Shown: positions 3,373 to 34,267, counted from the stretch's first letter. The stretch is DNA of 64,000 bases from a bacterium (GCA_965249615.1 CBDFMI010000006.1:444132-508131), one strand, 5' to 3'. Notes: generated by a model not told the origin, from the sequence alone. Numbers and translations are program-made.

Positions 3373-3432
3373 CCATCATGAGGGCTGGAAACGGGTGTTG
3401 CCTGTTCCCTGTGCCCTTTGGCATGAACCTGG

Positions 3433-5441: not shown

Positions 5442-5769
5442 TCCCCGGGTTCCATCCTAGCGAAGACATTCGGGGTCTCAAGGACCCAGTCCGCCTATAG
5501 GGCCCTTTCCTCATTGGAGGTCAGTCTAACCTCTCTTGGACTCTCGTCCAAGGGGGTTGTTTTGCGAGGACGGCAGGTTTCTCGAAAGGGACGGCTTAAG
5601 GGTGTCCGGGCTGAAAACGGGCTGAACAAAAGAGATCTTGCTGAATTTTGGAGAGGGGAGTATACTGGCGCCACTTTTTTACTAACAGATGTTCTCATCC
5701 AATCAGCCCATTCGCATCTGCTGTTCTCTTAATATATCGGTCTTCTATCGTCTGTGGGGAGGAGAAAAG

Positions 5770-9794: not shown

Positions 9795-9831
9795 AGGTTA
9801 AAGGGCTCGACTCGGACTTGGTGCACACAGC

Positions 9832-12039: not shown

Positions 12040-12129
12040 GGGTTAAAAAGTTCGCGTCGATCCTGGTGAAAAAGCAGGCTCACCTTTGGCCCGCGATCGG
12101 GTTTTTAGTTTGAGAGGACGTGGGTAAGA

Positions 12130-13806: not shown

Positions 13807-13807
13807 G

Positions 13808-14878
13808 ATGGCAGGTCTGATGACGAAAGTCTCCCATGCCCTTCGAGGGGGTTGGGGGACCCTTTTGAAGGTCGGGGTGAGTGGACTGCTCATCCTTGTC
13901 CTCATTTGGCAGGTGGATTTCGATCGGCTTTGGGTCGTCGTCCGGGATATGTCCCCCGCCTGGCTCCTCCTGGCGCTCTTCTTCAAGTCGGGAGGGGTAT
14001 TCTCGAGCATCCTTCGGTGGCGAGTGCTTCTGAAGGGACAGGACCTCGCCGTCCCTTTAAAAGTCCTCACCTCCTCCTTTCTCGAAGGCCGTTTCTTCGG
14101 CACCTTCACGCCGAGCACCATCGGCCTTGACGCCTATCGAACGTATGACCTGGCCAAGTATTCCGGCCGAACAGCGGCCTCGGTTTCAGTCACATTGGTG
14201 GATAAGGTGATCGGGCTGTTCTCTCTCTCCTTTCTCGTGGCGGTCACCTCATTTGCCGGCGCCCGGTTTGTTGGAGGGCAAGGGGTCTTCTCCCTTCTCC
14301 TCGTCTTCTGTGTCCCCCTCTCCCTGTCCCTGATCTTTCTCCTTTTTCCGGGGCTCCTTGGCCGACTCGTCGACATCAGGAGGTGGAAATCAGGAGGATG
14401 GGCGGAGAAGATGGGCCGTTTCGTCGAAACCGTCACCGTCTATCGCCACCACCGGATCCTCATTGTTCAGGCGGTCGGGCTCGCTATCTTGGTCCACCTT
14501 GGGACCACGCTCATGTATTACGGGACGGCCCTTTCGGTGCAAGCCCCGGTCAGCCCCTTGGACATCCTCTTCGTTGGGCCCCTGATGATCACGGCGACGG
14601 TCATCCCTCTTTCTGTGGCCGGGATCGGGGTCCGTGAGGGGACCTTTGTCTTCTTCCTCACTCGGGTGGGGATCGAGGCGGAGGCCGCCATCCTTCTCGC
14701 CTTTCTCGGGTTCCTCGTAGGCGAGGTCATCAGCCTTTTCGGAGGCTTCATCTTCCTGTTGCGCTCCCACGCGTATCATCGGCGTGAGGGGGGGGTCGCC
14801 GGGGCCGCGGAAAGCGGCCTGGGCAAAGCCGGGGGTGAGGAAGAGGCCGTGGGGACAAAGAAAGAGATTGGCTCTTGA
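13808..14878 (+). CDS. Flippase-like / lysylphosphatidylglycerol-synthase-TM-region family membrane protein (UPF0104). Alternative start ATG 13796, which would overlap the AP-1 stop.
   Basis: About 8 TM helices; N-terminal KVGVSGLLILVLIWQVDFDRLW...LALFFKSGGVFSSILRWRVLL pattern is characteristic of the TIGR00374/PF03706 family, often paired with glycosyltransferases. Confidence 0.5.
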   Translation: MAGLMTKVSHALRGGWGTLLKVGVSGLLILVLIWQVDFDRLWVVVRDMSPAWLLLALFFKSGGVFSSILRWRVLLKGQDLAVPLKVLTSSFLEGRFFGTFTPSTIGLDAYRTYDLAKYSGRTAASVSVTLVDKVIGLFSLSFLVAVTSFAGARFVGGQGVFSLLLVFCVPLSLSLIFLLFPGLLGRLVDIRRWKSGGWAEKMGRFVETVTVYRHHRILIVQAVGLAILVHLGTTLMYYGTALSVQAPVSPLDILFVGPLMITATVIPLSVAGIGVREGTFVFFLTRVGIEAEAAILLAFLGFLVGEVISLFGGFIFLLRSHAYHRREGGVAGAAESGLGKAGGEEEAVGTKKEIGS

Positions 14879-16551
14879 GACGCCTCCTCATCATCGGCGT
14901 CGACGCCGGCACCCTGGACCTCATCGAGCCGTGGGCCCGAGCGGGTGATCTCCCCCATCTGGCCCGTCTCCTCAGGGAGGGGGCCTATGGGCGAGTCCAG
15001 TCGACCCTCCCCCCCTCCACCTATCCCGCCTGGACCTCCTTCATGACCGGTCAGAACCCCGGGCGGCACGGTCTCGTGGACTTCACCTTGAGGGAGGGAG
15101 GGCGCTATGCCGTCAGATTCGCCAGCTCCCGAGACCGGCAAAGTGCTAGTTTGTGGGGGATCCTCAGTGAGGCCGGCCGAAGAGTCGCCGTCCTCGGCAT
15201 GCCCGCCACATACCCCCCTGAAGCCGTCAACGGCTGTATGGTCAGCGGATTCGACTCCCCCCTAGCATGGCGTCTCAACGAGAGCTTTTTTCATCCTCGA
15301 GGGCTCCACCGGGAGGTCATACAGGAGGCGGGACTCTTCCCGCTCTCGGCCTGCCGGGAGGATCGGATCGGAAAGGGCTGGCACGAGCGGGCCTATCGGG
15401 AGATCCTGAAATCACTGGAGCAAGAAACTCGCGTGGCGGAGTACCTCCTGGGCCGGGAAGCGTGGGATTGCTTCTGCGTCGTCTTCGGCCAGACAGATAC
15501 GGTGTGCCATCATTTCTGGAAATTCTTCGACCCATCCTCTCCCCGATATGACTCAGAGGGGGCGAGGCGCTTTGGAGACGCCATCCGTCAAGTCTATCGG
15601 CGTGTGGATTCAGCCATCGGTTCCCTGCTGCAAAAGGCGCCCGATGACGTCACGGTCCTCATCGTCTCGGACCACGGAGCGGGGGGGGCAGGAAACCAGA
15701 TTATTCATTTAAACGCTTGGCTGGCCGGGGAGGGCCATCTGACCTTTCGAAAGGGGGGGGTGGGCTACCGTGCCCTTTCAGCCCTGAAGACGCTGGGCCT
15801 CGGCTATCTCCCGAGGAGGGTTCAAGAACAGGTCTTTCGTGCGGGCGGGGGCAGGCTGGCAAATGGGCTAGAATCCCGCTTGCGTTTCGGCCAGATCGAA
15901 TGGGCGAAGACCCGGGTCTATTCCGAGGAGCTGGGTTATTTCCCCTCTCTTTGGATCAACCTTCGGGGGAGGGAGCCTCAGGGGACGGTGGAGCCCGGCA
16001 GGGAATATGAGGATCTGAGGGACGAGATCATCAGCCGCTTAGAGGTTCTCAGACACCCCGTCACGGGGAGGCGCCTCGTTGAGCGGGCCGTTCGGCGAGA
16101 GGAGGTTTATTGGGGCCCCTTTGTGGACCGGGTTCCTGACATTCTCCTGGAGCTCGCCCTCGACGAGGGCTATAGCTACTCCTGCCTTCGAAGTCCAGCC
16201 CGCTCCCAGGGCCCCTTCGTTCGCTCTCTCCAGAGAGCGGAGGGGGCCAGGGGCCAGGGGATGAACGGCTCACACCGACCAGAGGGGTTTTTCGTTCTCT
16301 CGGGTGAGGGGGTGCGCCCGGGGAAGTGCCGGTTCACCCCCCATCTCATGGACTTTGCCCCGACGCTTCTCGCCCTTTTGGGGATCACCCCTTCGGTGGG
16401 GATGGACGGTCGGGTCTTGGAAGAAGTCCTGAGCGTCCCTGAGCCTCATCCCGTCCCCGTCGCCGTGGCAGGGGAAGAGACGCCTTCGGCGGCCCAGGGG
16501 TGGGAAGGCACGGCCTTCCGGCGGCTTCGGGACCTTGGATACCTGGAATGA
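14875..16551 (+). CDS. Alkaline phosphatase family protein (type I phosphodiesterase/nucleotide pyrophosphatase-like), AP-2; TTG start overlapping the upstream stop
   Basis: IGVDAGTLDLIEPW...STLPPSTYPAWTSFMTGQNPGRHG...VSDHGAGGAG; paralogous to AP-1. Ends ...FRRLRDLGYLE. Confidence 0.72.
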   Translation: MRRLLIIGVDAGTLDLIEPWARAGDLPHLARLLREGAYGRVQSTLPPSTYPAWTSFMTGQNPGRHGLVDFTLREGGRYAVRFASSRDRQSASLWGILSEAGRRVAVLGMPATYPPEAVNGCMVSGFDSPLAWRLNESFFHPRGLHREVIQEAGLFPLSACREDRIGKGWHERAYREILKSLEQETRVAEYLLGREAWDCFCVVFGQTDTVCHHFWKFFDPSSPRYDSEGARRFGDAIRQVYRRVDSAIGSLLQKAPDDVTVLIVSDHGAGGAGNQIIHLNAWLAGEGHLTFRKGGVGYRALSALKTLGLGYLPRRVQEQVFRAGGGRLANGLESRLRFGQIEWAKTRVYSEELGYFPSLWINLRGREPQGTVEPGREYEDLRDEIISRLEVLRHPVTGRRLVERAVRREEVYWGPFVDRVPDILLELALDEGYSYSCLRSPARSQGPFVRSLQRAEGARGQGMNGSHRPEGFFVLSGEGVRPGKCRFTPHLMDFAPTLLALLGITPSVGMDGRVLEEVLSVPEPHPVPVAVAGEETPSAAQGWEGTAFRRLRDLGYLE

Positions 16552-17768
16552 GTGGAGAGAAAGGATCTCGTCGGAAGGTGGCCATGGTGGCCCCCTGTCC
16601 CTTCCCAAGCGTTCAGGGCTCCCAGATCCTGATCCAGGATCTGGCCGGGGGCCTCGAGAGGAGGGGACACGAGGTCCACGTGGTCACTTACCCCTTCGGG
16701 GGCTCCCGTCCGACCGCTTCCTTGCGGATCCACCGGGCTGCCTGTCCCCTTCGTTATGCCGTGGACCACCCGGGCCCTCATCTCTATAAACCTTTTCTGG
16801 ACCTCTTCGTCTTGAGAGAGCTCCTGCGGGTCATCCGCGGGGAGGGGATTGAGCTCCTCCACGCCCACAGCTATGAGGGGTTGCTCATCTCCCTGCTGGC
16901 CGGAAGGTGGACGGGCATTCCCGTCCTCTATCACAGCCACACCCTCCTCGAGGAGGAGCTCCCCACCTATTTTCGGGCCTCGTGGAAGCGCGCCCTGGCG
17001 CATTGGGTGGGCCGACTGCTGGACCGACAGCTTCCGCGTCGGTCAGACCATTGCATTGCCCTTTGTCAGAGAACCCTTGGGGCCTTTCGGGCCTTGGGGG
17101 TGGCGGCGGATCGCTCTTCCTGCATTCGTCCTCTGATCTTTTCCCCCGCCGATAAAACTCCTTCCAGGGTGGATGTAGAGCGCCATCCCTTCATCCTCTA
17201 TACGGGAAACCTCCACCCGTATCAGGATCTCAATCTCCTGATGGAGGGGTTCGCCGAGGTGGCCTCGAGGCTCTCAGAGGTCCGCCTGGTTATCGCCACC
17301 CATTCTGACCCTTCCCATTACGCCGCCCTGGCAAGGGCCCTGGGGCTGTCGGAGCGGGTCTCCTTTCGCGTGAAACCTCCCTTGGATGAAGAGTGGGGTT
17401 TGATGCGGAGGGCCGACCTCCTCGTCTGTCCGCGCCTTCGGTGCTCCGGCTACCCCATCAAGCTTTTGAACTACCTGGCGGCTGGAAGGCCCATCCTCGT
17501 CAGTGAGGGCTCGGCCGAGGGGATTCGCCATGGCGAGAACGGCTACGTTGTCTCTCGGCCTGAACCGAAAACCCTGGCGGAGGGGGCTATTCAAATCCTT
17601 CAGTCCCCCGCCTTGGCAAAACGGTTGGGCGAAGGGGCGGCCCGGACCTACCGGGAGGAGGTGGCGGAAGAGCGCTCCTTGTCGGCCATCGAGGCCATCT
17701 ACACGCAGTGTCTGGGGGAGGAGGGGAACGCGGCCCTCCTCGCCCACCCGAGGGAAATGGCCTCATGA
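16548..17768 (+). CDS. Glycosyltransferase family 4 (group 1)
   Basis: ATGA start/stop overlap with AP-2. N-terminal VAMVAPCPFPSVQGSQILIQDLAGGLERRGHEVHVVT (GT4 N-domain) and C-terminal ...CPRLRCSGYPIKLLNYLAAGRPILVSEGSAEGIRHGENGYVV (E-x7-E-like donor-binding region). Confidence 0.75.
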   Translation: MSGEKGSRRKVAMVAPCPFPSVQGSQILIQDLAGGLERRGHEVHVVTYPFGGSRPTASLRIHRAACPLRYAVDHPGPHLYKPFLDLFVLRELLRVIRGEGIELLHAHSYEGLLISLLAGRWTGIPVLYHSHTLLEEELPTYFRASWKRALAHWVGRLLDRQLPRRSDHCIALCQRTLGAFRALGVAADRSSCIRPLIFSPADKTPSRVDVERHPFILYTGNLHPYQDLNLLMEGFAEVASRLSEVRLVIATHSDPSHYAALARALGLSERVSFRVKPPLDEEWGLMRRADLLVCPRLRCSGYPIKLLNYLAAGRPILVSEGSAEGIRHGENGYVVSRPEPKTLAEGAIQILQSPALAKRLGEGAARTYREEVAEERSLSAIEAIYTQCLGEEGNAALLAHPREMAS

Positions 17769-19168
17769 CCAAGGTCTTGATCCTGGGCCTCGATTGCGCA
17801 GACCCTCGCCTGGTCTTTGACCGCTGGCGACAAGAACTTCCGAACCTCAGACAGCTCATGGAGGCCGGCGTCTGGGGCCCTCTTCAGAGCACCATCCCCC
17901 CCATCACGGTCCCAGCCTGGGCCTGCATGATGACGGGGCGGGACCCTGGAGAGCTAGGGATCTATGGGTTCCGAAACCGGACCTCCTATCAGTACGGGGC
18001 CCTGGGGATCACCAGCTCTCTCTCGGTCCAAGAGGAGACCCTGTGGGACATCCTGGGCCGCACCGGCCGGGAGGTGGTGGTCGTCGGGGTCCCTCCTTCA
18101 TATCCTGTGAAGCCCGTCCGGGGCAGCCTCATCTCCTGCTTTCTCACCCCGAACGCCGAGGTCCCTTTCACGCATCCCCCTGAGCTCAAGGAGGAGGTTC
18201 AGCGTCTTGCCGGCGGGTACCTGTTTGACGTGGAGGGATTCCGGACCGACGACAAGCCCCGGCTCCTCCAACAGATCCACGAGATGACAGAAAAACGCTT
18301 TAGGGTCCTGAAACACCTACTCACCCGAAAGCCGTGGGACTTTTTTATGTCGATGGAGATCGGGGTGGACCGCATGCATCACGGCTTTTGGAAATTTCAC
18401 GATGAGGGCCACATCAAGCACCCCCCGCAAAACCCCTATCAGCACGTCATTCTGGACTATTACCGCTATGTGGACAAGGAGATCGGTGAGCTGGTGGAGT
18501 CCGTCGACGAGGACACGGTCATCATCGTCCTCTCTGATCACGGGGTGAAGAGGATGGAGGGGGGGCTGTGCGTCAACGAATGGCTCATGAAGCAGAAATA
18601 TCTGAGCCTCTCCGCCTACCCCAAGGAGCTCACCTCCCTCAGCAAGCTCGATGTGAACTGGGACCGGACCATGGTCTGGGGAGAAGGGGGGTACTATGGC
18701 CGGATCTATCTCAACGTAAAGGGCCGGGAACCCCAGGGGGTCATCGCCCCAAATGACGTGGAGAAGATCCGGGCAGAGCTGAAACAGGGCATGGAAGAGC
18801 TTTCCGACGAATCAGGGCGCCCCCTCGGGACCCGCGTATTCTATCCCGAGGAGGTCTATCAGGAGGTCCGGAGGATCCCGCCCGATCTCATCGTCTATTT
18901 TGGAGACCTGGACTGGCGCTCTGTCGGGACCGTGGGCCATGGCTCGATCCACACCCGAGAGAATGACACGGGCCCTGACGACGCCAACCACGACACCCAC
19001 GGGATATTCATCATGGCGAAGAAGGCGGACCTCAAAGGGGGCGGGACCGGTCTGGGAACCCGCCTCGACGGTCTCAGCCTCTACGACGTGACCCCCACCG
19101 TCCTGGACCTCCTTGGCCTTCCCATCCCACCCTCGATGCACGGGCGAGTGATTTCTCCTAGAGCCTGA
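17765..19168 (+). CDS. Alkaline phosphatase family protein (type I phosphodiesterase/nucleotide pyrophosphatase-like), AP-3
   Basis: ATGA overlap with the GT4 stop. MTKVLILGLDCADP...STIPPITVPAWACMMTGRDPGELG...LSDHGV. Lacks the C-terminal LGY tag (ends ...HGRVISPRA). Confidence 0.75.
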   Translation: MTKVLILGLDCADPRLVFDRWRQELPNLRQLMEAGVWGPLQSTIPPITVPAWACMMTGRDPGELGIYGFRNRTSYQYGALGITSSLSVQEETLWDILGRTGREVVVVGVPPSYPVKPVRGSLISCFLTPNAEVPFTHPPELKEEVQRLAGGYLFDVEGFRTDDKPRLLQQIHEMTEKRFRVLKHLLTRKPWDFFMSMEIGVDRMHHGFWKFHDEGHIKHPPQNPYQHVILDYYRYVDKEIGELVESVDEDTVIIVLSDHGVKRMEGGLCVNEWLMKQKYLSLSAYPKELTSLSKLDVNWDRTMVWGEGGYYGRIYLNVKGREPQGVIAPNDVEKIRAELKQGMEELSDESGRPLGTRVFYPEEVYQEVRRIPPDLIVYFGDLDWRSVGTVGHGSIHTRENDTGPDDANHDTHGIFIMAKKADLKGGGTGLGTRLDGLSLYDVTPTVLDLLGLPIPPSMHGRVISPRA

Positions 19169-22045: not shown

Positions 22046-23464
22046 TTATCTCCCGGTGGCGGGCTCTAAATTCACCTCGATATAGCGCGCAATCTGGGGG
22101 TGGACTCGGGAGATCTCGTGGTAGATCTGCTGAGCCGCCCTCCGGTAGGTGAAGTGCCCCTTGGGGTCGGAGCGGAGCTTCACCACGTGCATCACCTCCC
22201 GGAGGTTCATCTGCCAGAGGAAGCGGCGGTGATGAGCGTTTAGGACAAAGTAGGGGGCCTCGTTCGGAAAATCCGCCAAAAACTTCTCAAAACACTTCTC
22301 GGCCTTGTCCACCCCTGCCAAATATTCTTGTTTCAACCCGGCGTCCTCGACGAGCTCGGGGATCGAGAACCCGTGGCGGATGGTCGGGGCCTGAGTGCTC
22401 TGGCTGCACATCCGGTGGCGCTTGAGGTCGAGGAAGGCCCCCTGGTCCACGAGACACTCGAAGGTGTAGGTCAGGTACTCCATCTCCCGGATGGGGATGT
22501 CAAAACGCTCTATTCGGCTCAGGGCCTCTTCAATGACTTTTTCCCGAGCTTCTTGGGGCATCTGTGCCACCCTCTCCCGGATGGCCTCGTAGGGGAGATG
22601 ACTGTATTTGAACAAGATGGCCGCCGCCAGGGCGACGTCGGGGTTTTCGGGGACCTGAACCAGCCGGGCATAATTTTCCTGAGGGCCGGACGCCTTTGAG
22701 ACCGGGGAGCCGTTGGTCATGGTAGAGGCGACGAGCTTCCTGAGGGCCGCCTCCGTGTCTCTCAGATAGGCGTTGTCGTCTGCATACTTGACGAGGGTTG
22801 GGGCGGCCGCCTGGCTGACCTCCTTCAGGGTGGTCCCGATCTGTTGGATTTCGGACAGGTCGTGGGAGAGCATCTTGGTGATGGCGTGCTCCAGGTGTCG
22901 GGCGTTGACGGTCATCCCCACATTGGCCAGGGCGGCGGTGGGGAGGAGAAAGCGCGAGCGGTCGAGGGCGTGGGCCCTCACGCGGACGTTGTATCCCCGA
23001 TCCGTCTCGTTCTCCCTCCTTTGGAGGACCCCCTTCTCTTTGATGAAGGCGTCCAGCTTCGTCTGGACGGCGTGGTAGTTCTCGAACATCCACTGCATGG
23101 CCTCGCGGTATTTTTGGCCGAGGGGTGAGGCGTCCACCTCGTCTGGGACATAATAGTCGTCCGGCTTGAAAACCTGATAGCGGGAGGATTTTTCGGTGTA
23201 GGAGGCGAGACGGTTCGCCTCGATGACTTCCGTTGCGTAGCGCGAAACATTCTCGATGGCGATGGAGAGGACGGCGTGCTCGGCCACCGAGGCGTGCCCA
23301 TAGCCGACGACCCATTTCTCATGGAACTCGGCCGAGGCGCTTTCGGTCAGCTCCTTGGCGATCTCGTCAAAGGCCTTTGGGGAGCGACTCGTCTTCGCGA
23401 AGGCGACGGCGACCACCTCGGGCGGGAGGTCCCGGAGGAGATAGATGCGGCGTTTTTTGTCCAT
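22046..23464 (-). CDS. thyX: FAD-dependent thymidylate synthase ThyX, long tandem-domain form
   Basis: The C-terminal half carries the canonical LKRHRMCSQS (RHR..S) motif. The N-terminal half is Thy1-like (GHASVAEHAVLSIAIENVSRYATEVIEANRLASYTEKSSRYQV) with a degenerate RHR; 472 aa is about twice a standard ThyX. Confidence 0.6.
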   Translation of the reverse strand: MDKKRRIYLLRDLPPEVVAVAFAKTSRSPKAFDEIAKELTESASAEFHEKWVVGYGHASVAEHAVLSIAIENVSRYATEVIEANRLASYTEKSSRYQVFKPDDYYVPDEVDASPLGQKYREAMQWMFENYHAVQTKLDAFIKEKGVLQRRENETDRGYNVRVRAHALDRSRFLLPTAALANVGMTVNARHLEHAITKMLSHDLSEIQQIGTTLKEVSQAAAPTLVKYADDNAYLRDTEAALRKLVASTMTNGSPVSKASGPQENYARLVQVPENPDVALAAAILFKYSHLPYEAIRERVAQMPQEAREKVIEEALSRIERFDIPIREMEYLTYTFECLVDQGAFLDLKRHRMCSQSTQAPTIRHGFSIPELVEDAGLKQEYLAGVDKAEKCFEKFLADFPNEAPYFVLNAHHRRFLWQMNLREVMHVVKLRSDPKGHFTYRRAAQQIYHEISRVHPQIARYIEVNLEPATGR

Positions 23465-23595: not shown

Positions 23596-25074
23596 CTATG
23601 GGACCAGGGCGATGGCCGACGCCCCTTGGAAGAAAGGGGCCGCTGAGGCCTTAACCGCGGAGAGCAGGGGGTCGGGATAGAGCCCGATCAGGAGGACTCC
23701 GACCACCATCAAGCCGAGGGCGAGACGGAGTGGGACGGAGGTGGAGATTTCGACCTTTCCGGCCGGTTCCACCATGTACATATTCACGACGACCTTGAAG
23801 TAGTAGTAGACGGAGAGGACGCTGTTCAGGACCCCGATGAGGGCCAGCCAGATATAGCCTGACTCGATGGCCGCCGAGAAGAGATAGAACTTCCCGACAA
23901 AACCCGCCGTCGGCGGGACCCCCGCCAGAGAGAGAAAGAAGACGACAAAGCCGATGCCGGCCAGGGGGTGGGCCCTCGCGAGTCCCCGAAAATCCTCCAC
24001 CCGGTCTCCTCGGAAGTTTTGGCGGCACAGGAGGATCACCATGGCGAAGGCGCCCATGTTCATGAAGATGTAGACGGCCAGGTAGAGGAGGACGCTTGCC
24101 ATCCCGATCTCGCTGCCGACGACGAGGCCGATCATGACGTAGCCGGCATGGGCCACCGAAGAGTAGGCCAGGAGCCGTTTCAGGTTGGACTGAACCATGG
24201 CGGCGATGTTGCCCCAGGTCATGCTGAAGACGGCCAGGAGCCAGAGGAGAATGGCCCACTGGTCGGCGATCCCCTCGAAGGCGACGGCGAAGATCCGGAG
24301 CAACCCCGCGAAGGCCGCCGCCTTGGTCCCCACGCTCATGAAGGCCGTGATGGAGGTGGGGGCTCCCTGGTAGGCGTCCGGGGCCCACATGTGGAAGGGG
24401 ACGAGGGCGATTTTGAAGGCGAACCCAGCCACGATCATGATGACAGAGAGGGTGAGGAGAATATTGGGGCCTGTCATCTCCCCGAAGGCGGCATGCATGG
24501 CGGCGAGGTTCGTCGTCCCCGTAATGCCGTAAGCGAGTGCGATTCCGTAGAGGATGATCCCCGAACTGAAAGCCCCCAGGAGAAAGTATTTGATCCCTCC
24601 CTCTTGGGACAAGAGATCGCGCTTCATGAAGCCGACCAGCATGTAGATGGGGATGGAGAGAAGCTCCATGCCGATGTAGATGGTCAGGAGGTCGCTCCCC
24701 CCGGCCATCACCATCATCCCGATAACGCTGAAGAGGATCAGGGCGTAGTACTCCCCCAGGTGAATCTCCTCTATCGAGAGGTATCGCAGGGAGATGAGGA
24801 CCGTGAGGACGGTGATCGCCAGAAAGATGAACTTGAAGAAGATGGCGAAGGAGTCCACCCGGTACATGTCGCTGAAGAGGCTGGCCTCCATCCCGATCAG
24901 GGGGAGGGTGAGGAGGCCCGTCACGACGACCCCGAAAAGCGTCAGGAGGCCCAAGAGCGCCTTTCGCCTCTGGGGGACAAAGAGGTCCACCAAAATCACG
25001 AGGCAAACGAGGACCGTCATGGCGATCTCCGGCATGATCGCAAAAAGGTTGACGGCGGGGAGCTTAAGCGGCAT
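23596..25074 (-). CDS. nuoN: NADH-quinone oxidoreductase subunit N
   Basis: 14-TM antiporter-like subunit; position and sequence typical of NuoN at the distal end of the operon. Confidence 0.85.
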   Translation of the reverse strand: MPLKLPAVNLFAIMPEIAMTVLVCLVILVDLFVPQRRKALLGLLTLFGVVVTGLLTLPLIGMEASLFSDMYRVDSFAIFFKFIFLAITVLTVLISLRYLSIEEIHLGEYYALILFSVIGMMVMAGGSDLLTIYIGMELLSIPIYMLVGFMKRDLLSQEGGIKYFLLGAFSSGIILYGIALAYGITGTTNLAAMHAAFGEMTGPNILLTLSVIMIVAGFAFKIALVPFHMWAPDAYQGAPTSITAFMSVGTKAAAFAGLLRIFAVAFEGIADQWAILLWLLAVFSMTWGNIAAMVQSNLKRLLAYSSVAHAGYVMIGLVVGSEIGMASVLLYLAVYIFMNMGAFAMVILLCRQNFRGDRVEDFRGLARAHPLAGIGFVVFFLSLAGVPPTAGFVGKFYLFSAAIESGYIWLALIGVLNSVLSVYYYFKVVVNMYMVEPAGKVEISTSVPLRLALGLMVVGVLLIGLYPDPLLSAVKASAAPFFQGASAIALVP

Positions 25075-25077
25075 CTC

Positions 25078-26673
25078 CTACCTGCTCCATTCTGTGGTCA
25101 GGTACTGGTGCTGTCTCAAGGCCTCAGACGCCTGGGCGGACAGGCTTTCGGGCGTCCCCCGGGCCAGCTCCACGTGCTGGATGAGGTTCTTGACGCTCGG
25201 TTCCATGATTTCGAGGAAAGGCTTGGGGTACATCCCGATCCAGAACATGAGAAGGAGGATGGGGAGCATGTAGGCGACTTCGCGGCGGTTCAAGTCCGGG
25301 AGGTTTTGGTTCTCCTCATGGGTCACGGCCCCGAACATCATCCGCTGGAAGAGCCAGAGCATATAGCCCGCCCCGAGGACGATCCCCGTGACAGCGAAGG
25401 CGGCGTACACCGTGCTCGTCTGAAAGACCCCAAGGAGGATGAGGAATTCTCCCACGAAGCCGTTGAGGCCGGGAAGCCCAATGGACGAGAACATGGCGAT
25501 GGCGAAGACCACCGTGAAGACCGGCATCACGCGCGCGAGGCCGCCGTAGTCGGCGATCATTCGGCTGTGTCTTCGCTCATAGAGGATCCCCACGATCAAG
25601 AAGAGGGCCCCGGTGGAGAGACCGTGGTTCAGGTTCTGAAGGAGGGCCCCAAGAAGACCCTGGGGGTTCAGGGCGAAGATCCCCAGCATGACGAACCCGA
25701 GATGGCTCACGGAGCTATAGGCCACCAATTTTTTAATGTCTTTCTGGGCCATGGCCACAAGGGCCCCGTAGATGATCCCGATGATGGCCAGAAGGGCGAT
25801 GAAGGGGACGAGGTTGAAACTGGCCCTGGGCAGCAGGGGGAGGCTGAAGCGGACGAAGCCGTAGGTCCCCATCTTGAGGAGCACCCCGGCCAGGATGACA
25901 CTCCCCGCCGTGGGGGCCTCCACGTGGGCGTCGGGAAGCCAGGTGTGGAAGGGGAACAAGGGGACCTTGATGGCGAAGCCCACAAAGAGGGCGAGGAAGA
26001 TCCAGAACTGAAAGTTCTCGGGCAGCTTCGGCGCCATCCGGTAGAGCTCAAGCAAATTAAAGGTGAACTCGCCGGAGCCGTAGATGGGGTCGGCGTTCAG
26101 GAAGTAAAGGGCCAGAAAACCCAGGAGGAGGAGGACGCTTCCGAAGAGTGTGTAGAGGAAAAACTTGATGGCGGCGTAGAGCTTCCGAGCCCCCCCCCAG
26201 ATGCCGATGAGGAAATACATGGGGACCAGCATGACCTCCCAGAAGACGTAGAACAGGAAAACGTCAAGGGCCATGAAGACCCCCAGCATCCCTGTCTCCA
26301 GGATGAGGAGGCTCACGTAGTACTCTTTTTGCCGCTCTCCGATGTTGCTGAAGGAGCAGAGAACCGCGACGGAGCTGAGGAGCGTGGTCAGGATGATGAG
26401 GGGGAGGCTGATCCCATCGATGCCAAAGAAGTATTGGACCCCGATGGATGGGATCCACTCCGCGCGTTCGACGAACTGCATTTGGACATTGCTCGGCTCA
26501 AAGTAGGGGATCATGAAGAGTGAGGAAAAGAGGGAGATCAGCGAGACGCCGAAGGCGAACCATTTGATGACGAGTGGTCGCTGCCTGGAGAAGAGGAGCA
26601 TGATCAAGACGGCCCCTACGATGGGGACGTAGGCCGTCATCGAAAGGACGGGGAAGCCGAGGGCGTTTGTCAT
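25078..26673 (-). CDS. nuoM: NADH-quinone oxidoreductase subunit M
   Basis: Antiporter-like subunit, 531 aa, conserved NuoM order between L and N. Confidence 0.85.
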   Translation of the reverse strand: MTNALGFPVLSMTAYVPIVGAVLIMLLFSRQRPLVIKWFAFGVSLISLFSSLFMIPYFEPSNVQMQFVERAEWIPSIGVQYFFGIDGISLPLIILTTLLSSVAVLCSFSNIGERQKEYYVSLLILETGMLGVFMALDVFLFYVFWEVMLVPMYFLIGIWGGARKLYAAIKFFLYTLFGSVLLLLGFLALYFLNADPIYGSGEFTFNLLELYRMAPKLPENFQFWIFLALFVGFAIKVPLFPFHTWLPDAHVEAPTAGSVILAGVLLKMGTYGFVRFSLPLLPRASFNLVPFIALLAIIGIIYGALVAMAQKDIKKLVAYSSVSHLGFVMLGIFALNPQGLLGALLQNLNHGLSTGALFLIVGILYERRHSRMIADYGGLARVMPVFTVVFAIAMFSSIGLPGLNGFVGEFLILLGVFQTSTVYAAFAVTGIVLGAGYMLWLFQRMMFGAVTHEENQNLPDLNRREVAYMLPILLLMFWIGMYPKPFLEIMEPSVKNLIQHVELARGTPESLSAQASEALRQHQYLTTEWSR

Positions 26674-26714
26674 AGAGGCGAAACTCCCAGTCAGGACTTA
26701 GAAGTTATCTTTCC

Positions 26715-28748
26715 TCATCCGAGAAGGAGGAAGAGGCTCACGGTGATGAAAATGCCAAGGAGCATGACCAGGGCATAGTTCTGGACGACGCCCGTCTGAA
26801 GGCGGCGAAGCCCCCGGGCCCAGTTGATGAGAATGACCCCGATCCCATTCACGGCGCCGTCCACCGTTTGAAGATCGAAAATGCCAGACAGCTTGCTGAG
26901 GGCCACCGTTCCCCATGAGACCCCGTTGACAGCCCCGTCCACACCCTTGGCGTCAGTGCCCGAACAAAGATGAGCCAGGCGTATCGAGGGCCGTATGAAG
27001 ACGGCGTGGTAGATCTCGTCCACCCAGTATTTATTGAGGAGGAGCCGGTGGACTCCACGGAATCGCTCGGCCACCTTGGCGGGGAGGTCTGGCCGCTTTC
27101 GATACATGTGGCGGGCCAGCATCCACCCCGACACCCCCACCACCACCGAAAAGACGGCGAGCCACAGCTCCAGAAGGCCGAATCTCCCTGATTTGTTTTC
27201 GGCTGAAGCCGCCACCAGCTGGATGCCGGCATGGCCCCCGTCTGGGAAGACTGGCGCCAAATGCTCGTGAAAGAAGTTCATCTGCGGGATGCCGACCCAG
27301 CCCCCCAGCAGGGCGAGGACGGCGAGGATCACCAAGGGAACCGTCATCACGGCGGGGGATTCGTGGACATGGGAGACGACGTGAGGGTCGCCCCGGGATT
27401 CTCCGTAGAAGGCGAGATAGATGAGGCGGAACATGTAGAAGGCCGTCATGAAGGCGGTGATGATCCCCAGGGCGTAGAGGAAATAGTGGCCGCCCTTAAA
27501 AGTCTCGGCCAGGATCTCGTCTTTGCTGAAGAAGCCCGCGAAGGGCGGAATCCCGGCGATGGCGAGGGCCCCCATGTAAAAGGTGATGGCCGTGACGGGG
27601 AGGCGGCGACGAAGCCCCCCCATGTAGCGAAGGTCCTGCCTCCGCCCCTCCTCCGGGTCGGAGTGCAGGGCGTGGATGACGCTCCCCGCGCCGAGGAACA
27701 TGAGGCCTTTGAAAAAGGCGTGGGTCATGAGATGAAAGATCCCGGCCCCGAAGGCCCCCACCCCAAGGGCCATAAACATGTAGCCGAGCTGGCTCACCGT
27801 GGAGTAGGCCAGGACCTTTTTGATGTCATTCTGGACGAGCGCAATGGAGGCGGCGAAGATGGCCGTGAGGGCCCCGACCAGAGCCACCACGCTCATAGAC
27901 ACGGGGGAGAGGAGATACAAGGCGTTCGAGCGGGCCACCATGTAAACCCCGGCGGTCACCATGGTGGCGGCGTGGATGAGGGCGCTGACCGAAGTGGGGC
28001 CTTCCATGGCGTCCGGAAGCCAGGTGTAGAGGGGAAGCTGGGCCGATTTCCCCACGGCCCCCACAAAGAGGAGGAGTGTAATGGCCGTCGCCGCGCCGGC
28101 GATGGCGGAGCCCGCCACCGCTGCCCCGGCCTGATCGAAGACGCCTGCGTAGTTCAGCGTCCCGAATGTCTGGAAGATGAGAAAGAGGCCGAGGAGGAAA
28201 CTCGCGTCCCCGATGCGGTTCATGATGAAGGCCTTTTTTCCCGCGTCGGCGGCTGACTTCTTGTGGTACCAAAAGCCGATGAGGAGATAAGAACAGAGCC
28301 CCACCCCCTCCCAGCCGACGAACATGAGGAGGTAGTTGTTGGCCAGGATGAGAAGGAGCATCGAGAACATGAAGAGGTTCAGGTAGGCGAAGTAGCGGGA
28401 GTAGCCCGGGTCCCCACGCATATACCCGGCCGAGTAGACGTGGATGACGAACCCCACCCCCGTTACCACGAAGAGCATCACGGCGCTGAGGGGGTCCAGA
28501 AGGAACGCCACCTCGACCAGAAGGCTCGGCACCGGGATCCACTCAAAGAGGCGCACCTCACCGCTCAGGCCCCGGAAGACCGCCTGATAGAGGAGGAGGA
28601 GGGACAGCCCCAGAGAAAGGCCGGTGGAGATAATGGCGGGCCAGTGGGCTTTCCTTCCGATGTAGCGCCCGAGGAATCCGTTCACCAAGACCCCCAGGGC
28701 CGGAAAGACGAGGACGAGAGGCAGAAGATTCAGCACTGATATCACCAC
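26715..28748 (-). CDS. nuoL: NADH-quinone oxidoreductase subunit L
   Basis: 677 aa antiporter-like subunit with long C-terminal extension (horizontal helix) typical of NuoL. Confidence 0.85.
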
Positions 28749-29044
28749 TTCAACAGGTTGATCTCGTCGACGTTTAGGGCGGCTCTTTGCCGGTTGATGG
28801 AGATGATGAGGGCGAGTCCGACGGCGGCCTCGGCCGCCGCCACCGTGATGACAAAGATGGCGAAGACCTGCCCCGTTAGGTTCCCATGGGCCCTGGAGAA
28901 GGCTATCAGGGTCAGGTTGACGGCGTTCAGCATGAGTTCGATGGACATCAGGATGATCATGATGTTTCGCCTGGTCAGGACCCCGACGGCCCCAATCAGG
29001 AAGATGATGCCCCCCAGGGCGAGGTAGTAAGGAATGGGAACCAT
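28742..29044 (-). CDS. nuoK: NADH-quinone oxidoreductase subunit K
   Basis: 100 aa, 3 [38 protein letters not shown] matches NuoK. Confidence 0.85.
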
Positions 29045-29566
29045 TTACTTAATCTCTCGCTTGGCCAGCACGATGGCCCCGATCATGGCCGCCAGGAGGA
29101 GGAGGGAGGCCACCTCAAAGGGGAAGAGGAACTGGGTGTAGAGAACGCCCCCGAAGGCCTCGGTGTTGCCTATCTCCGCGGCGGCCTTCGCCCCCTCTGC
29201 GACAACCCCCGCCGGGGGCAGCAATTCGAAGAATCCCCCCAACAGGATGACCAGGAACTCGGCGGCCAGGAGCCCACCGATGATGAAAGCGAAGGCCCGC
29301 TGGCGGTTCCACTGACGGACCCCCATCTGTTCGCGCACATTAACGAGCATAATGACGAAGACGTAGAGCATCATGATGGCCCCGGCGTAGATGAGGATCT
29401 GGATGGCAGCGAGAAACTCCGCGCCCAGCATGACGTAAAGGGCAGCCACGAAGAAGAAGCTGAGGAGGAGAGCGAGGGCGCTGTGGACCACGTTTCTCAG
29501 GCTGATGACCATCACGGAGGCGGCGATCATCCCGACCGCGAAGATGAGAAAGAATGGCCATTCCAT
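29045..29566 (-). CDS. nuoJ: NADH-quinone oxidoreductase subunit J
   Basis: 173 aa, 5 TM, conserved position between H and K. Confidence 0.8.
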   Translation of the reverse strand: MEWPFFLIFAVGMIAASVMVISLRNVVHSALALLLSFFFVAALYVMLGAEFLAAIQILIYAGAIMMLYVFVIMLVNVREQMGVRQWNRQRAFAFIIGGLLAAEFLVILLGGFFELLPPAGVVAEGAKAAAEIGNTEAFGGVLYTQFLFPFEVASLLLLAAMIGAIVLAKREIK

Positions 29567-29579
29567 CTTGGAATCCCCT

Positions 29580-30662
29580 TTAAACGAGCTGCAGGACGAT
29601 ACCGGTGATAAAAATGTTCAAGAGAGCCAGCGGGAACATCATCTTCCACCCCAGCGCCATGAGCCGGTCATAGCGAAAGCGCGGCAGGGTCCCCCTGATC
29701 CAGATGAACATGAACATCCCGAACAGCACCTTGAGGAAGAACCAGAGAGGTCCTGAGATGAGGACGGCCTTCGTCACCCCCCCGATGTTCTGGACCAGGG
29801 AGGCCAACCCCACAGAGGCGGCGCCGACGGCCGATGCCACCAGGAAGGTGACCAGGTCCACGCCGCCCGAGATGATGGTTTCCAGGAACTGGGGGATTTG
29901 CCAGCCCCCGAAGAAGAGGATCGCCCCGATGGAGCAGATCACCATCATGTTGGCGTACTCAGCCAGGAAGAAGAAGGCGAACTTCATGCCGCTGTACTCG
30001 GTGTGGAAGCCCCCCACCAGCTCTGTCTCGGCCTCGGGGAGGTCGAAGGGGAGGCGGTTGGTCTCGGCGAGCCCGGCGACGAAGTAGAGGACGAAAGCCA
30101 GGGGCTGATAGAAGATGAACCAGACGTTCTTCTGGGCCTCGACGATCTCAAGGAGGTTCAGGGACCCGGCCACCATGAGAGGGCCGATTAGGGCGAACCC
30201 CAAAAAAATCTCGTAGCTGATGAGTTGGGCCGCGCTCCGGAACCCCCCCAGCAGGGAATACTTGCTCCCCGAGGCCCAGCCCGCCATGACGATGCCGAAG
30301 ACACCGAGGGAGGAGATCCCGAGGATGTAGAGGATCCCGATGTTGATGTTGGCGATGAAGAAGTTCCCCGAGATGGGGATGACCGAGTAGACGATGAAGG
30401 CGGGGATGAGGGCGAAGAGCGGGGCCATCAGGAAGACCGGTCGATCCGCCTGGTGCGGGATGATGTCTTCCTTGAGGAAGAGTTTTAGACCGTCGGCGAT
30501 GGGCTGAAGGAGGCCGTGGTAGCCGACCCGCATGGGCCCCATGCGCACCTGAATGTGCCCGATGACCTTCCGCTCGAAGTAGACCATGTAGGCCACCAGG
30601 AACGAGACCGCCCCCCAGATAATCAGGATCTTGATGAGGGCGAAACCAACCTCAAGCCACAT
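29580..30662 (-). CDS. nuoH: NADH-quinone oxidoreductase subunit H
   Basis: 360 aa; [17 protein letters not shown] and the FDLPEAE...E motif typical of NuoH/ND1. Confidence 0.85.
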
Positions 30663-30701
30663 CTGTGTGCACCTTGCCTCCGCTAGGGGGGGTCGCTGAC
30701 C

Positions 30702-31826
30702 TCAGCGATCCACTTCCCCGAGCACAATATCGATGCTTCCGATGGCGGCGACGGCGTCCGAGATGAGGCCGCCCTGCATCATGGTGGAGATCGACTGCAG
30801 ATTCACGAAAGAGGGGGGACGGATCCTCAGCCGGTAAGCCCGGTCGGTCCCGTCACTGACTAGATAGTAGCCCAGCTCCCCCTTGGGACTCTCGATCCGG
30901 TGGTAGACTTCCCCCTTTTTTGGCTTCAACACCCGGGGAACCTTGGCCATGGTCTTTCCGGAGGGGAGGTCGGCGGCGGCCTGCTCGATGATGAAGGCGC
31001 TCTGGCGCATCTCCTCCACACGGACGAGGTAACGGTCATAGACATCGCCATTCTTTCCCACCGGGACGGTGAAGTCAAAATCCTCGTAGGCGGCGTAGGG
31101 CTCTGCACGCCGCACGTCATGGGCCACGCCGGAGGCCCTCAGGATGGGCCCACTGGCCCCGAGGTCAATGGCGTCCTCGGCGGAGAGAACGGCCACTCCG
31201 CGGGTCCTGGACTGCCAGATACGGTTCTCGGTGAGGAGGTCTTCATAATCGTAGATGGCCTTGGGGAACTCGCGGGCGAACTCCAAACACTTGTCGTAAA
31301 AAAGTTTGGGGGGGTCGTGGTAGACGCCTCCGACGCGGAAGGCATGAACCGTGAGCCTCGCCCCAAAGGCGGTCTCGAAAAGATCCAGGACCTTCTCTCG
31401 GTCCCGGAAACAATAGAGGAAGGCCGTCATGGCCCCGATGTCCAGGGCGTGGGTGGCGAGCCAGAGGAGATGACTCGCGATCCGGGTGAGTTCGGCTGTG
31501 ATGACGCGGATGTACTGGGCCCGGGCCGGAACCTCCATCTGAGCAAGCTTTTCCACCGTCTCCACATATCCCAGGTTGTTGGCTGGGGAGGCCACATAAT
31601 CCGTTCGGTCTGTGTAGGGAACGAACTGGGCGTAGGTGATGTTCTCGCCGATCTTCTCGACGCCCCGGTGGAGATAACCGATGTCCACGTCAACCCCTTG
31701 CACAATCTCCCCCTTCAGCCGAAGGATGACGCGAAGGACCCCGTGGGTGCTGGGGTGCTGGGGCCCCATGTTGAGGATGAGCTCTTCCGTCTGGGGGACG
31801 ATGGTCTCTGGGGTGACCTGGGTCAT
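30702..31826 (-). CDS. nuoD: NADH-quinone oxidoreductase subunit D (49 kDa)
   Basis: NMGPQHPSTHGVLRVILRLKGEIV...YLHRGVEKIGE is canonical NuoD. Confidence 0.85.
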   Translation of the reverse strand: MTQVTPETIVPQTEELILNMGPQHPSTHGVLRVILRLKGEIVQGVDVDIGYLHRGVEKIGENITYAQFVPYTDRTDYVASPANNLGYVETVEKLAQMEVPARAQYIRVITAELTRIASHLLWLATHALDIGAMTAFLYCFRDREKVLDLFETAFGARLTVHAFRVGGVYHDPPKLFYDKCLEFAREFPKAIYDYEDLLTENRIWQSRTRGVAVLSAEDAIDLGASGPILRASGVAHDVRRAEPYAAYEDFDFTVPVGKNGDVYDRYLVRVEEMRQSAFIIEQAAADLPSGKTMAKVPRVLKPKKGEVYHRIESPKGELGYYLVSDGTDRAYRLRIRPPSFVNLQSISTMMQGGLISDAVAAIGSIDIVLGEVDR

Positions 31827-31830
31827 AGTC

Positions 31831-32622
31831 TCACTCTCGATGGGCCATGGGCCGGGCGGCGGGCGGGATATGGCTTTCTACCCATTGGAGCCCGAACCCA
31901 TCCCCGCGAACGGGATACTCCTTTCGGAGGGGATGGCCCTCCCAGTCGTCCGGGAGGAGGATCCGTCTGAGGTCGGGGTGGCCCTCGAAATCAATCCCCA
32001 CCATGTCGTAGGCCTCTCGTTCGAGCCAGTTGGCCGTCCGCCAGATGTCAGACACGGTCGGGGCCGTCTCCGCCTCCCCAAGGCGGACCTTCAGCCGAAG
32101 GCGCCCCCTTCGCTCCAAGCCATAGAGGTGATAGACCACCTCGAAGGGGCGATCCCGGTCCGGGTAGTGGACACCGCAGAGGTCCGACAGGAAATTGAAA
32201 TGGTGTTGGTCTTTGAGGTGAAGACAAAGTGGGTGGATCTGGTCCCGCCGGACGACGACGGTGAGTTCGTCCTCTTTTCCCATGAAGGCGGAGACCTCTT
32301 CCACCCCTTCCCCTGAAAAGGCGCGAATGGCCTTCACCAGGGGGAGTTCCTCGAGATTTTCGCCGGGCTTTTTGTCCGCTTTGACCGGTGGCGGGGCCTT
32401 TTTTTGTTCCGAGGCCGGGGGTTTCTCAGCCGGAGGCGCTTTGGGCTCTTCGGATTCAGCCGTTGGAGGGGAAGCTTCGGGAGCGGCTGACTCTTCCCCC
32501 TCGGGCTTTTTGTCCGCCTTGACCGGCGGTGAGGCCTCTTTTTGTTCCGAGGCCGGGGGTTTCTCAGCCGAGGACGCTTCGGGCTCCTCGGGCTCAGCGG
32601 GGGCGGAGTTCTCTTCGGTCAC
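31831..32622 (-). CDS. nuoC: NADH-quinone oxidoreductase subunit C (30 kDa) with ~95-aa N-terminal Ala/Pro/Glu/Lys-rich tandem-repeat extension; GTG start
   Basis: C-terminal 170 aa are canonical NuoC ([31 protein letters not shown]...[24 protein letters not shown]). The N-terminus has two copies of [10 protein letters not shown](E/K)[10 protein letters not shown]. Confidence 0.8.
32340..32620. repeat. ~140-bp imperfect tandem duplication inside the 5' end of nuoC, encoding the repeated Ala/Pro/Glu/Lys-rich peptide
   Basis: The DNA run ...GGGCTTTTTGTCCGC(T/C)TTGACCGG(T/C)GG(C/T)G(G/A)GGCCT(T)TTTTTGTTCCGAGGCCGGGGGTTTCTCAGCCG... occurs twice in direct succession. Confidence 0.6.
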
Positions 32623-32742
32623 CTCGTCTCTCCTCTAGACGACGACCCATCTAACCTGTGCAAAAATTCACAAAAGGCGGCCAAAAAAAAGCTTCCCGTT
32701 GTTCCTTTGGCCTCCCTGACTCACGGTCATCGTTTCCCTGGG

Positions 32743-33219
32743 CTACTTTCGAAGAAACTTTTCCTGCTGGATCTTCTCCTGCAGCTTCAGAATTCCCCAC
32801 ATCAAGGCCTCCGGGCGGGGAGGGCAGCCCGTGAGATAGATGTCGACGGGGACCACTTGGTCCACGCCCTGGAGGGTGGAGTAGGTGTTGAAAGGTCCTC
32901 CTGCCGTCGAGCAGCTCCCCATGGAGACCACCCATCGGGGTTCTGCCATCTGGTCATAGATCTTGCGCAAAACCGGGGCCATCTTGTAGGTGACGGTCCC
33001 GGCCACGATCATCACGTCCGACTGACGCGGGCTCGCCCTGAAGATGACCCCAAAGCGGTCGAGGTCATATCGGGAGGCGCCTGTGGCCATCATCTCAATC
33101 GCGCAGCAGGCCAGGCCGAACTGCATGGGCCAAAGGGCTGATTTTCGGGCCCAATTGACCAGGTAATCGAGGGTTGTCGTGAAGATGTTCTCCTCGAAGC
33201 GGTGTTCCACTACACCCAT
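32743..33219 (-). CDS. nuoB: NADH-quinone oxidoreductase subunit B (20 kDa, N2 cluster)
   Basis: [11 protein letters not shown]...[12 protein letters not shown]...LTGCPPRPE are the four Cys motifs of NuoB. Confidence 0.85.
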
Positions 33220-33602
33220 TTAAGGGCCCCTTTGCGCCAGGCGTAGAAGTAACCGACGAGGAGGATGAGAATGAAGAGCATCATCTCGACGAGGCCAAAT
33301 AGGCCGAGCCGGCCGTAGACCACCGCCCAGGGAAACAGGAAGACCGCCTCCACGTCAAAAAGGAGGAAGAGGATGGCGACGATGTAAAACCGGATGGAAA
33401 ATTGTTCCCCCGCCCGCGTGAGGGGCGGGATCCCGCACTCATAGGGGGAGAGTTTCTCGGTGTCTGGCCGGTTGGGTCGGATGAGATAGGCCAGGAGGAG
33501 GGTCCCGATTCCGAAGGCCGCCACCACCAGGATGAAAATGAAGATTGGGACATAGGGATGGATGACAGTGTAGTCACTGAAAAACCGGTTAACCAGTTCC
33601 AC
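33210..33602 (-). CDS. nuoA: NADH-quinone oxidoreductase subunit A
   Basis: 130 aa, 3 [13 protein letters not shown] motif of NuoA; first gene of the operon. Confidence 0.8.
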
Positions 33603-33714
33603 GCCGGGCCCCCTCGAAACCCCACATCCCTACTTAGTAATTATACTTTATTAGTCCCCGGAAGCGAAGACGCAACGGGAAAAAAGGTCTCCTGATCGGT
33701 CCTTGGATTTTTCT

Positions 33715-34032
33715 TCACGGCTTGAAGAAGACCTCGGTCAGACAGGGGTCGATCTCTGGTTTCAATTCCAGATAACGCTCACTTCGCTGGAGCTGGTTGA
33801 AGAGGGCCGTCTTTCCGGCTACGCCCAGTTCTGACCAGTTGACGCAAGCCTTGGCCTCCTTAACGAGGAGGTCCAGGCGCTTCGCCCGCTCTTTCTCATC
33901 TTCCTCATCGCCCGTCTCGGCCAGGGCCCGAAGGCGCTGGATGCACCCGGAGAGGGTGTCTTCCCGGGAAGGTAGAGACTCGAAGATATAGAGATAGCCC
34001 TCTATCCGCTGACGCAGGGCCTGCGCGTCCAT
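33715..34032 (-). CDS. Hypothetical protein (about 105 aa from internal Met; the ORF is open up to 34236)
   Basis: ORF only; acidic/coiled-coil-like; no recognisable family. Confidence 0.3.
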   Translation of the reverse strand: MDAQALRQRIEGYLYIFESLPSREDTLSGCIQRLRALAETGDEEDEKERAKRLDLLVKEAKACVNWSELGVAGKTALFNQLQRSERYLELKPEIDPCLTEVFFKP

Positions 34033-34267
34033 GGCCCCCCACTTCTTCTTCTCGCTCACCAGGCAACTCCGCCGTCTTAGGGCTTTCCGCGGGCGAGGAC
34101 CGTGGTCCCCACCATCGCGGCGAACCGGATAAGGAAACGACCTCAAAAGGGCGAAAGAAGATCTCTGAAGATAAAGCGCCTTGAGCGATCCTGGTTCCTT
34201 TCCTTGATTTATAGAGCTTCGCAGGCGAAAATGCACCCTCTTTTGCTTTCACGAAAGAGGTTTCGGC

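Follow-up and report, generated by a model that had tools for sequence, protein, structure and literature searches.

The 64,000-nucleotide stretch of bacterial DNA analysed here (GCA_965249615.1, CBDFMI010000006.1:444132-508131; hereafter the window, with positions counted from its first letter) carries a complex I operon from which nuoE, nuoF, nuoG and also nuoI are missing. On the minus strand, between positions 23596 and 33602, ten consecutive open reading frames (ORFs) follow each other in the order nuoA-B-C-D-H-J-K-L-M-N; each has a match to its Pfam family (E = 1e-29 to 1e-123), in agreement with the NCBIfam Nuo models. NuoI (also TYKY or Nqo9; clusters N6a and N6b) is regarded as a universal core subunit of complex I and of its hydrogenase relatives, and is the last relay before the iron-sulfur (Fe-S) cluster N2. 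We propose, with a probability of about 0.5, that the ten genes encode a second quinone/pump isoform of complex I that receives NuoI, and perhaps NuoE, NuoF and NuoG, in trans. Seven of the products (NuoA, H, J, K, L, M and N) would make up the membrane arm and the other three (NuoB, C and D) the quinone-reducing core with N2, and the complex would be a working, proton-pumping complex I. The nuoI gene would have been lost in an ancestor whose ten-gene operon sat directly behind a canonical 14-gene nuoA-N operon, and the NuoI of that operon would complete the complex in trans, possibly together with the NADH-oxidising NuoE/F/G module. Two isoforms would then have a common electron-input wire but a different quinone site and pump, the second being expressed from its own promoter. 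In the window's species the two operons would since have come apart, leaving NuoI to be supplied from an unlinked locus.

The gene order put forward in the original prediction was matched by the ten ORFs and their profile hits, and the two short spacers it had pointed out were read from the sequence as well, 39 bp between nuoD and nuoH (30663-30701) and 13 bp between nuoH and nuoJ (29567-29579, minus strand), the latter being the position of nuoI in other complex I operons. Its claim that nuoE, F, G and I are missing held both for the operon and for the entire window. The ferredoxin motif CxxCxxCxxxC was found in no ORF of at least 50 aa across the 64 kb, and tblastn searches of the window with NuoE, F, G and I queries from E. 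coli and from a close relative gave a best E value of only 0.1, with no NuoI match better than E = 0.9. The absence of nuoI thus extends over the flanks contained in the window, which reach 30 kb beyond the operon on its upstream side and 23 kb on its downstream side. No second nuo copy was present within the 64 kb, and tblastn revealed no trace of a canonical nuo operon upstream of the ten genes in the window.

We then looked at the arrangement in relatives, using a NuoH scan with one genome per species and gene maps drawn for the best 80 loci. A gap of at most 85 bp separates nuoH from the following nuoJ in 42 related loci, whose genomes bear the labels Nitrospinota, 'Tectomicrobia' or just 'bacterium'; the nuoI-less operon is a conserved family in Nitrospinota-like genomes and not a one-off. 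As the original prediction had suggested, a second nuo operon was worth searching for: 41 related loci have a nuoI-bearing nuo cluster on the same strand, and the nuoI-less operon starts 131-353 bp after the nuoN gene of that cluster. Where this upstream cluster is readable (in full at L081 and L085, from nuoD on at L082), it is a complete nuoABCDEFGHIJKLMN, so that the relatives carry a 24-gene array, 14 genes and then 10. Neither the existence of such a family nor its usual tandem setting was part of the original prediction. The second operon is without exactly nuoE, F, G and I, all ten other subunits being duplicated, and the upstream canonical operon is the only place in these genomes where nuoE, F and G are present. 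All Fe-S clusters that precede N2 reside in NuoE, F, G and I. At all tandem loci, the canonical NuoI was the only 4Fe-4S ORF within 10 kb of the second operon.

The tree of concatenated NuoB, NuoD and NuoH (neighbour-joining only, 100 bootstraps) placed the nuoI-less sequences in one clade with a bootstrap of 60. Its sister, with a bootstrap of 81, is L036, a stand-alone Nitrospinae nuoABCDHIJKLM cluster that retains nuoI, and both lie inside the 11-subunit clusters without nuoEFG of Acidobacteriota, Schekmanbacteria and others (bootstrap 91). The window and L001 are sister to the group L002-L006 (bootstrap 100). An ORF with two [4Fe-4S] motifs stands between nuoH and nuoJ in every 11- and 14-subunit cluster of the comparison set, and the claim that 11-subunit relatives keep a NuoI homologue was borne out by all 27 of the 27 such clusters compared. 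From these sequence comparisons we conclude that the nuoI-less operon is derived from the 11-subunit type without EFG.

Could the operon simply be a remnant that is decaying or has lost its redox function, or an error of assembly or annotation? Nothing beyond the missing gene speaks for this, and we regard it as very improbable. The window proteins belong to a metagenome-assembled genome and lie on a contig of 881,271 bp; four other assemblies of the same species, on contigs of 0.72, 1.42, 2.13 and 2.15 Mb, have an identical gene order and identical neighbours: genes for a LysM/SLT protein, a pentapeptide protein, an aminotransferase, a DsbA-like protein and a methyltransferase and a 115-aa ORF on one flank, thyX and sat on the other. 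The layout is therefore common to five independent assemblies, and to more than 40 genomes if relatives are counted. All ten ORFs are intact, and a comparison with the 95%-identical L001 gave dN/dS ratios of 0.09-0.24 across the ten genes (for instance 0.21 for nuoA, 0.17 for nuoB and 0.09 for nuoD) and no indels in the aligned regions; the operon is under purifying selection.

Residues needed for catalysis and pumping are also invariant clade-wide, as judged from alignments with E. coli and with 11- and 14-subunit clusters that included 32-46 nuoI-less sequences per subunit. The four NuoB ligands of N2 (C63, C64, C129 and C158 in E. coli) are found in the window and in 44/44 nuoI-less sequences, and the equivalents of the quinone-site histidine (GPQHPSTHG; H224) and tyrosine (DRTDY; Y273) of NuoD in 45/45. 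NuoA keeps D79 and E81 (numbered as in E. coli) in all 43 nuoI-less sequences aligned, and NuoH its eleven conserved charged residues (Glu, Asp, Arg, Lys) in all 46. The same holds in the nuoI-less sequences for Y59 of NuoJ, E36 and E72 of NuoK, E144, D178, K229, H334, H338, K342, K399 and D400 of NuoL, E144, K234, K265 and E407 of NuoM, and E133, K217, K247 and K395 of NuoN. Considering all columns that are at least 90% conserved in nuoI-containing complexes, the nuoI-less clade keeps 77-97% per subunit and about 92% overall, with 92% in NuoB, C, D and H and 92% in NuoA and J-N; the few changes are conservative. Taken together, these sequence features point to the ten genes being a functional redox-coupled pump module. 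Since N2 and the quinone site are strictly conserved, the complex should still transfer electrons, and N2 would need a partner.

Several observations lead us to favour sharing of NuoI with the neighbouring operon. The missing subunits E, F, G and I exactly match what the neighbour encodes. The nuoI gene is absent where a canonical operon adjoins, and is kept by the stand-alone L036 and by the 11-subunit outgroups. There has been no large loss of constraint in the subunits that contact NuoI, and neither a compensating insertion nor a new conserved gene came with the loss: alignments of NuoA, B, C, D, H, J and K showed no clade-specific insertion able to replace NuoI, the only insertions being a disordered N-terminal extension of NuoC and a hydrophobic insertion in NuoH, neither of which has cysteines, and no extra conserved gene accompanied the loss of nuoI in the related loci. 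Supply in trans also has a precedent within the clade. In the soil genome L017, the second operon lacks nuoB as well (L017:2991-4076): nuoA ends at 3383 and nuoC starts at 3390, 6 bp apart, in an order nuoA-C-D-H-J-K-L that stands directly behind nuoM-N of the upstream cluster. NuoB must here come from another locus, and nuoB, nuoF and nuoEGD of the Nitrospina gracilis NUO-2 complex likewise lie at separate loci. The original prediction had left two options, a nuoI encoded elsewhere or a different way of taking up electrons; the nuoI-bearing cluster upstream in 41 loci favours the first, and the second stands as a rival. From the gene content, conservation, phylogeny and tandem arrangement that we observed, we infer that the NuoI of the other operon would assemble with these subunits, and that the genome of the window's species should contain a nuoI.

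Four points weigh against this proposal. In the window's species the operon stands alone in all five assemblies, and NuoI and NuoG of the neighbouring-operon type were not traced to this species although the same look-ups recovered all known tandem genomes. The two subunit sets diverged long ago, so that a cross-fit is not guaranteed: within one genome, the paralogues of NuoB share 62%, those of NuoD 49% and those of NuoH 57% identity, and between the 14-subunit type and the nearest 11-subunit cluster NuoI identity is only 38%. Finally, NuoD is short (374 versus 411 aa), which may argue against docking of NuoG.

The history of the window's species deserves separate consideration. Its closest relatives (bootstrap 100) are all tandem, and its lineage has therefore, in the simplest scenario, moved or lost the canonical operon. 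Every orthologue of the neighbouring-operon type of NuoI (at least 60% identical) and NuoG (at least 58%) belongs either to a known tandem genome or to a short unlinked contig, and none was traced to the contigs of the window's species, a result obtained by contig matching and not by a genome scan. Related chromosomes measure 2.9-5.2 Mb, so that the genome of this species may reach 3-5 Mb and its largest contigs cover perhaps half of it. Two contigs considered as possible carriers of its nuo genes, P0074 (654 kb) and P0326 (2.145 Mb), bear ordinary 14-gene operons of other organisms, and the divergent P0027 and P0221, on short contigs from other samples, could not be linked to the species.

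A rival explanation is an autonomous ten-subunit complex, in which no NuoI is used at all and N2 in NuoB is the sole Fe-S cluster. A soluble carrier (ferredoxin, flavodoxin or other) would dock on the surface that NuoI normally covers and exchange electrons directly, the reaction being coupled to quinone reduction or quinol oxidation and to proton pumping. We consider such an enzyme possible but unlikely. It would agree with a stand-alone operon kept under purifying selection in five assemblies, with the absence of NuoE, F, G and I from the 64 kb, and with the failure to trace a neighbouring-operon NuoI or NuoG to the large contigs of the species. It would also fit the promoter-like site that the second operon has even in tandem genomes, and the 40-62% identity of the paralogous sets, which makes sharing less obvious. 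Columns conserved in the 11-subunit clusters but variable in the nuoI-less clade are, moreover, slightly commoner in NuoB, C, D and H (4.2%) than in NuoA and J-N (2.3%). Against it stands the lack of precedent: no member of the complex I/group 4 hydrogenase superfamily with homologues of NuoB and NuoD is known to function in the absence of the subunit carrying two [4Fe-4S] clusters. The loss of nuoI coincides with adjacency to an operon able to supply it, no new conserved insertion or extra conserved gene came with the loss, and the failure to find nuoI in the window's species rests on the contig matching described above. The version restricted to this species, in which its lineage lost the canonical nuo operon altogether and was left with a ten-subunit complex I with N2 only, fed by a soluble carrier, appears to us slightly less likely still.

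A further alternative keeps a NuoI-like partner while dispensing with the neighbour: a dedicated second nuoI, or a diverged ferredoxin-like substitute, could be encoded at an unlinked locus and serve only the ten-gene complex. Peripheral nuo genes are indeed scattered in Nitrospinia (PMC3578206; PMC10839748), and the second operon of L017 must also do without its own nuoB. Yet when the NuoI of L036 was used as a query for an 11-subunit-type nuoI, none of the 41 homologues obtained came from a genome carrying the nuoI-less operon or lay on a contig matching one, in a search that relies on shared 5-residue words and that a very diverged copy could escape; and the canonical NuoI being the only 4Fe-4S ORF within 10 kb at all tandem loci also speaks against it. 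We hold this arrangement to be improbable.

We aligned the non-coding region upstream of nuoA (33603-33714, minus strand) with the spacers between nuoN of the first and nuoA of the second operon in L002-L006. In the window a TATAAT box (33640-33645) precedes the GTG start codon of nuoA by about 38 nt; an A-rich GTGAAGAAAAA element is common to this region and to the spacer of the tandem relatives. The consensus scan found no full sigma-70 match in the window's upstream region. In L003 and L006, the inter-operon spacer contains, at the corresponding position, a conserved sigma-70-like site (10/12; 0.2 expected by chance), and no terminator-like hairpin was seen in the spacer between the tandem operons. 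These consensus matches suggest a promoter function for the upstream site, and the second operon can probably be transcribed on its own as well as by read-through.

We compared the operon with known systems. Like the canonical 14-subunit complex I of E. coli and Thermus thermophilus, it has orthologues of NuoA, B, C, D, H and J-N in the usual order, with conserved N2 ligands, quinone-site His and Tyr and antiporter-type Lys and Glu residues; unlike it, the operon has no nuoE, F, G or I and encodes a short form of NuoD, and its subunits share only 40-63% identity with the canonical set in the genomes of relatives. The 11-subunit enzymes without EFG, a type that also includes cyanobacterial NDH-1 and archaeal Fpo, which keep an NdhI or FpoI homologue, are its phylogenetic home and lack EFG as it does, but those of Acidobacteriota, Schekmanbacteria and some Nitrospinota have nuoI between nuoH and nuoJ, where the window has a 13-bp spacer. 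Aquifex aeolicus has paralogous genes for the membrane and quinone modules and single-copy nuoE, F and G, implying isoforms that share subunits.

Closer in taxonomy is NUO-2 of Nitrospina gracilis, encoded by nuoACHIJKLMN, nuoEGD and separate nuoB2 and nuoF2 genes (Lücker et al. 2013, PMC3578206; Kop et al. 2024, PMC10839748) and proposed to drive reverse electron flow from quinol to ferredoxin (PMC3578206). It resembles the window operon in being a second, non-canonical complex I from the same phylum, with peripheral genes not confined to a single operon, and differs in having its own nuoI and modified E, F and G; in the window operon, nuoB, C and D are encoded in cis and nuoI is lacking. The '2M' complex I of Nitrospira, as reported in PMC8115632 after Chadwick et al. 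(2018), is a second paralogue without N-module genes; it is similar in lacking the NADH module and in belonging to lineages related to nitrite oxidisers but, in the citing description on which this comparison is based, has a duplicated nuoM where the window operon has single nuoL, M and N genes.

Two other assignments were rejected. A group 4 [NiFe] hydrogenase (Ech, Mbh, Hyf, Ehr or Mbx) does not fit a NuoD that lacks the Cys pairs, has GPQHPSTHG at its N-terminus and ends in VLGEVDR; the best profiles for this protein are NuoD equivalogs (490-506 bits), and Hydrogenase-4 models appeared only for NuoL, M and N, far below their cut-offs. Ehr clusters are not known to carry the subunit with two [4Fe-4S] clusters, but these are distant hydrogenase relatives, and the window proteins are bona fide Nuo orthologues by profile. 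A Mrp-type cation/proton antiporter was ruled out by the conserved NuoB, C, D and H. For Nitrospinia, the literature searched describes NUO-1 and NUO-2; it contained no description of a nuoI-less operon or of a 14+10 array, and the string nuoABCDHJKLMN occurred in none of it; within that literature, the ten-gene variant is undescribed.

If the modular isoforms are real, one electron-input module would serve two quinone/pump modules, which bears on forward versus reverse electron flow and on quinone choice in Nitrospinota, a phylum important for marine nitrogen cycling. Should the stand-alone case turn out to be truly nuoI-free, N2 would be serviceable without a ferredoxin subunit, making the complex a minimal redox-driven proton pump. 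In both cases, the tandem 14+10 array offers a clean natural system in which to study the modularity of complex I assembly.

The individual genes, all on the minus strand, are as follows. nuoA (33210-33602) has a GTG start and encodes 130 aa (PF00507, E = 3e-40); nuoB (32743-33219), whose product carries N2, encodes 158 aa (PF01058; NF005012 at 258 bits). nuoC (31831-32622) encodes 263 aa, with the PF00329 match at residues 122-240 (E = 7e-46), and starts at a GTG at 32622 preceded by a GGAGAG ribosome-binding site. The first 100 or so residues of NuoC (32300-32622) form the N-terminal extension mentioned above, which is rich in Pro, Glu, Ala and Lys, looks disordered and contains an internal repeat of 19 residues present twice; its length is not the same in the window and in the 95%-identical L001, and NuoC was called as a 218-aa protein in the sister assemblies. 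nuoD (30702-31826), for the quinone-site subunit, encodes 374 aa of the short type (PF00346, E = 9e-101; NF008974, 506 bits). nuoH (29580-30662) encodes 360 aa (PF00146, E = 2e-123), compared with 313-317 aa in other nuoI-less operons; its hydrophobic insertion of about 37 aa (residues 260-296; 29775-29885) is found only in the window's species and may be an extra membrane segment. Then come nuoJ (29045-29566; 173 aa; PF00499, E = 4e-42), nuoK (28742-29044; 100 aa; PF00420, E = 2e-30), nuoL (26715-28748; 677 aa from a GTG start, 669-673 aa according to the gene callers in sister assemblies; TIGR01974, 750 bits), the single-copy nuoM (25078-26673; 531 aa; TIGR01972, 633 bits) and nuoN (23596-25074; 492 aa; TIGR01770, 459 bits).

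Upstream of nuoA, at a distance of 112 bp, lies a small ORF (33715-34236, minus strand) annotated as 115 aa in the sister assemblies. It is about 95% conserved within the window's species and absent from all other loci; with no Pfam match and no Fe-S motif, and being restricted to this species, it was discarded as a substitute subunit. Nor was any of the neighbouring genes (thyX, sat, cysC, and those for a methyltransferase, a DsbA-like protein, a short-chain dehydrogenase and an aminotransferase) a candidate for an electron-input module. The thyX-like gene directly downstream of nuoN (22046-23464, minus strand) is unusually long, with 472 aa and two Thy1-domain stretches, and its neighbourhood with nuoN is conserved in L004 and L006.

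Among the related loci, L081 (1-1241, minus strand) and L085 (1-1314, minus strand) have a NuoE-NuoF-like fusion gene (553-560 aa), which is divergently transcribed and lies close upstream of the canonical nuoA. It combines 2Fe-2S thioredoxin-like, Complex1_51K, SLBB and NADH_4Fe-4S domains and is absent from the window. Two Eiseniibacteriota loci (L057:9145-16809 and L048:6778-12996) show another reduced layout, nuoA, a NuoE-like protein gene and then nuoH-J-K-L-M-N, without nuoB, C, D or I; the NuoE-like protein is of the thioredoxin-type [2Fe-2S] family (PF01257, E = 1e-52), and by its gene content the cluster is predicted to be a membrane arm with a single 2Fe-2S protein.

Elsewhere in the window, a run of five genes of the alkaline phosphatase superfamily (sulfatase/type I phosphodiesterase) at 7674-19168 is interleaved with genes for a lysyl-phosphatidylglycerol-synthase-like membrane protein and a GT4 glycosyltransferase, and may be a locus for lipid or cell-envelope modification. 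At 5689-6882 lies a gene for a fructose-1,6-bisphosphatase of FBPase_3 (PF01950, E = 7e-157), a family of bifunctional aldolase/phosphatases often seen in autotrophs and archaea.

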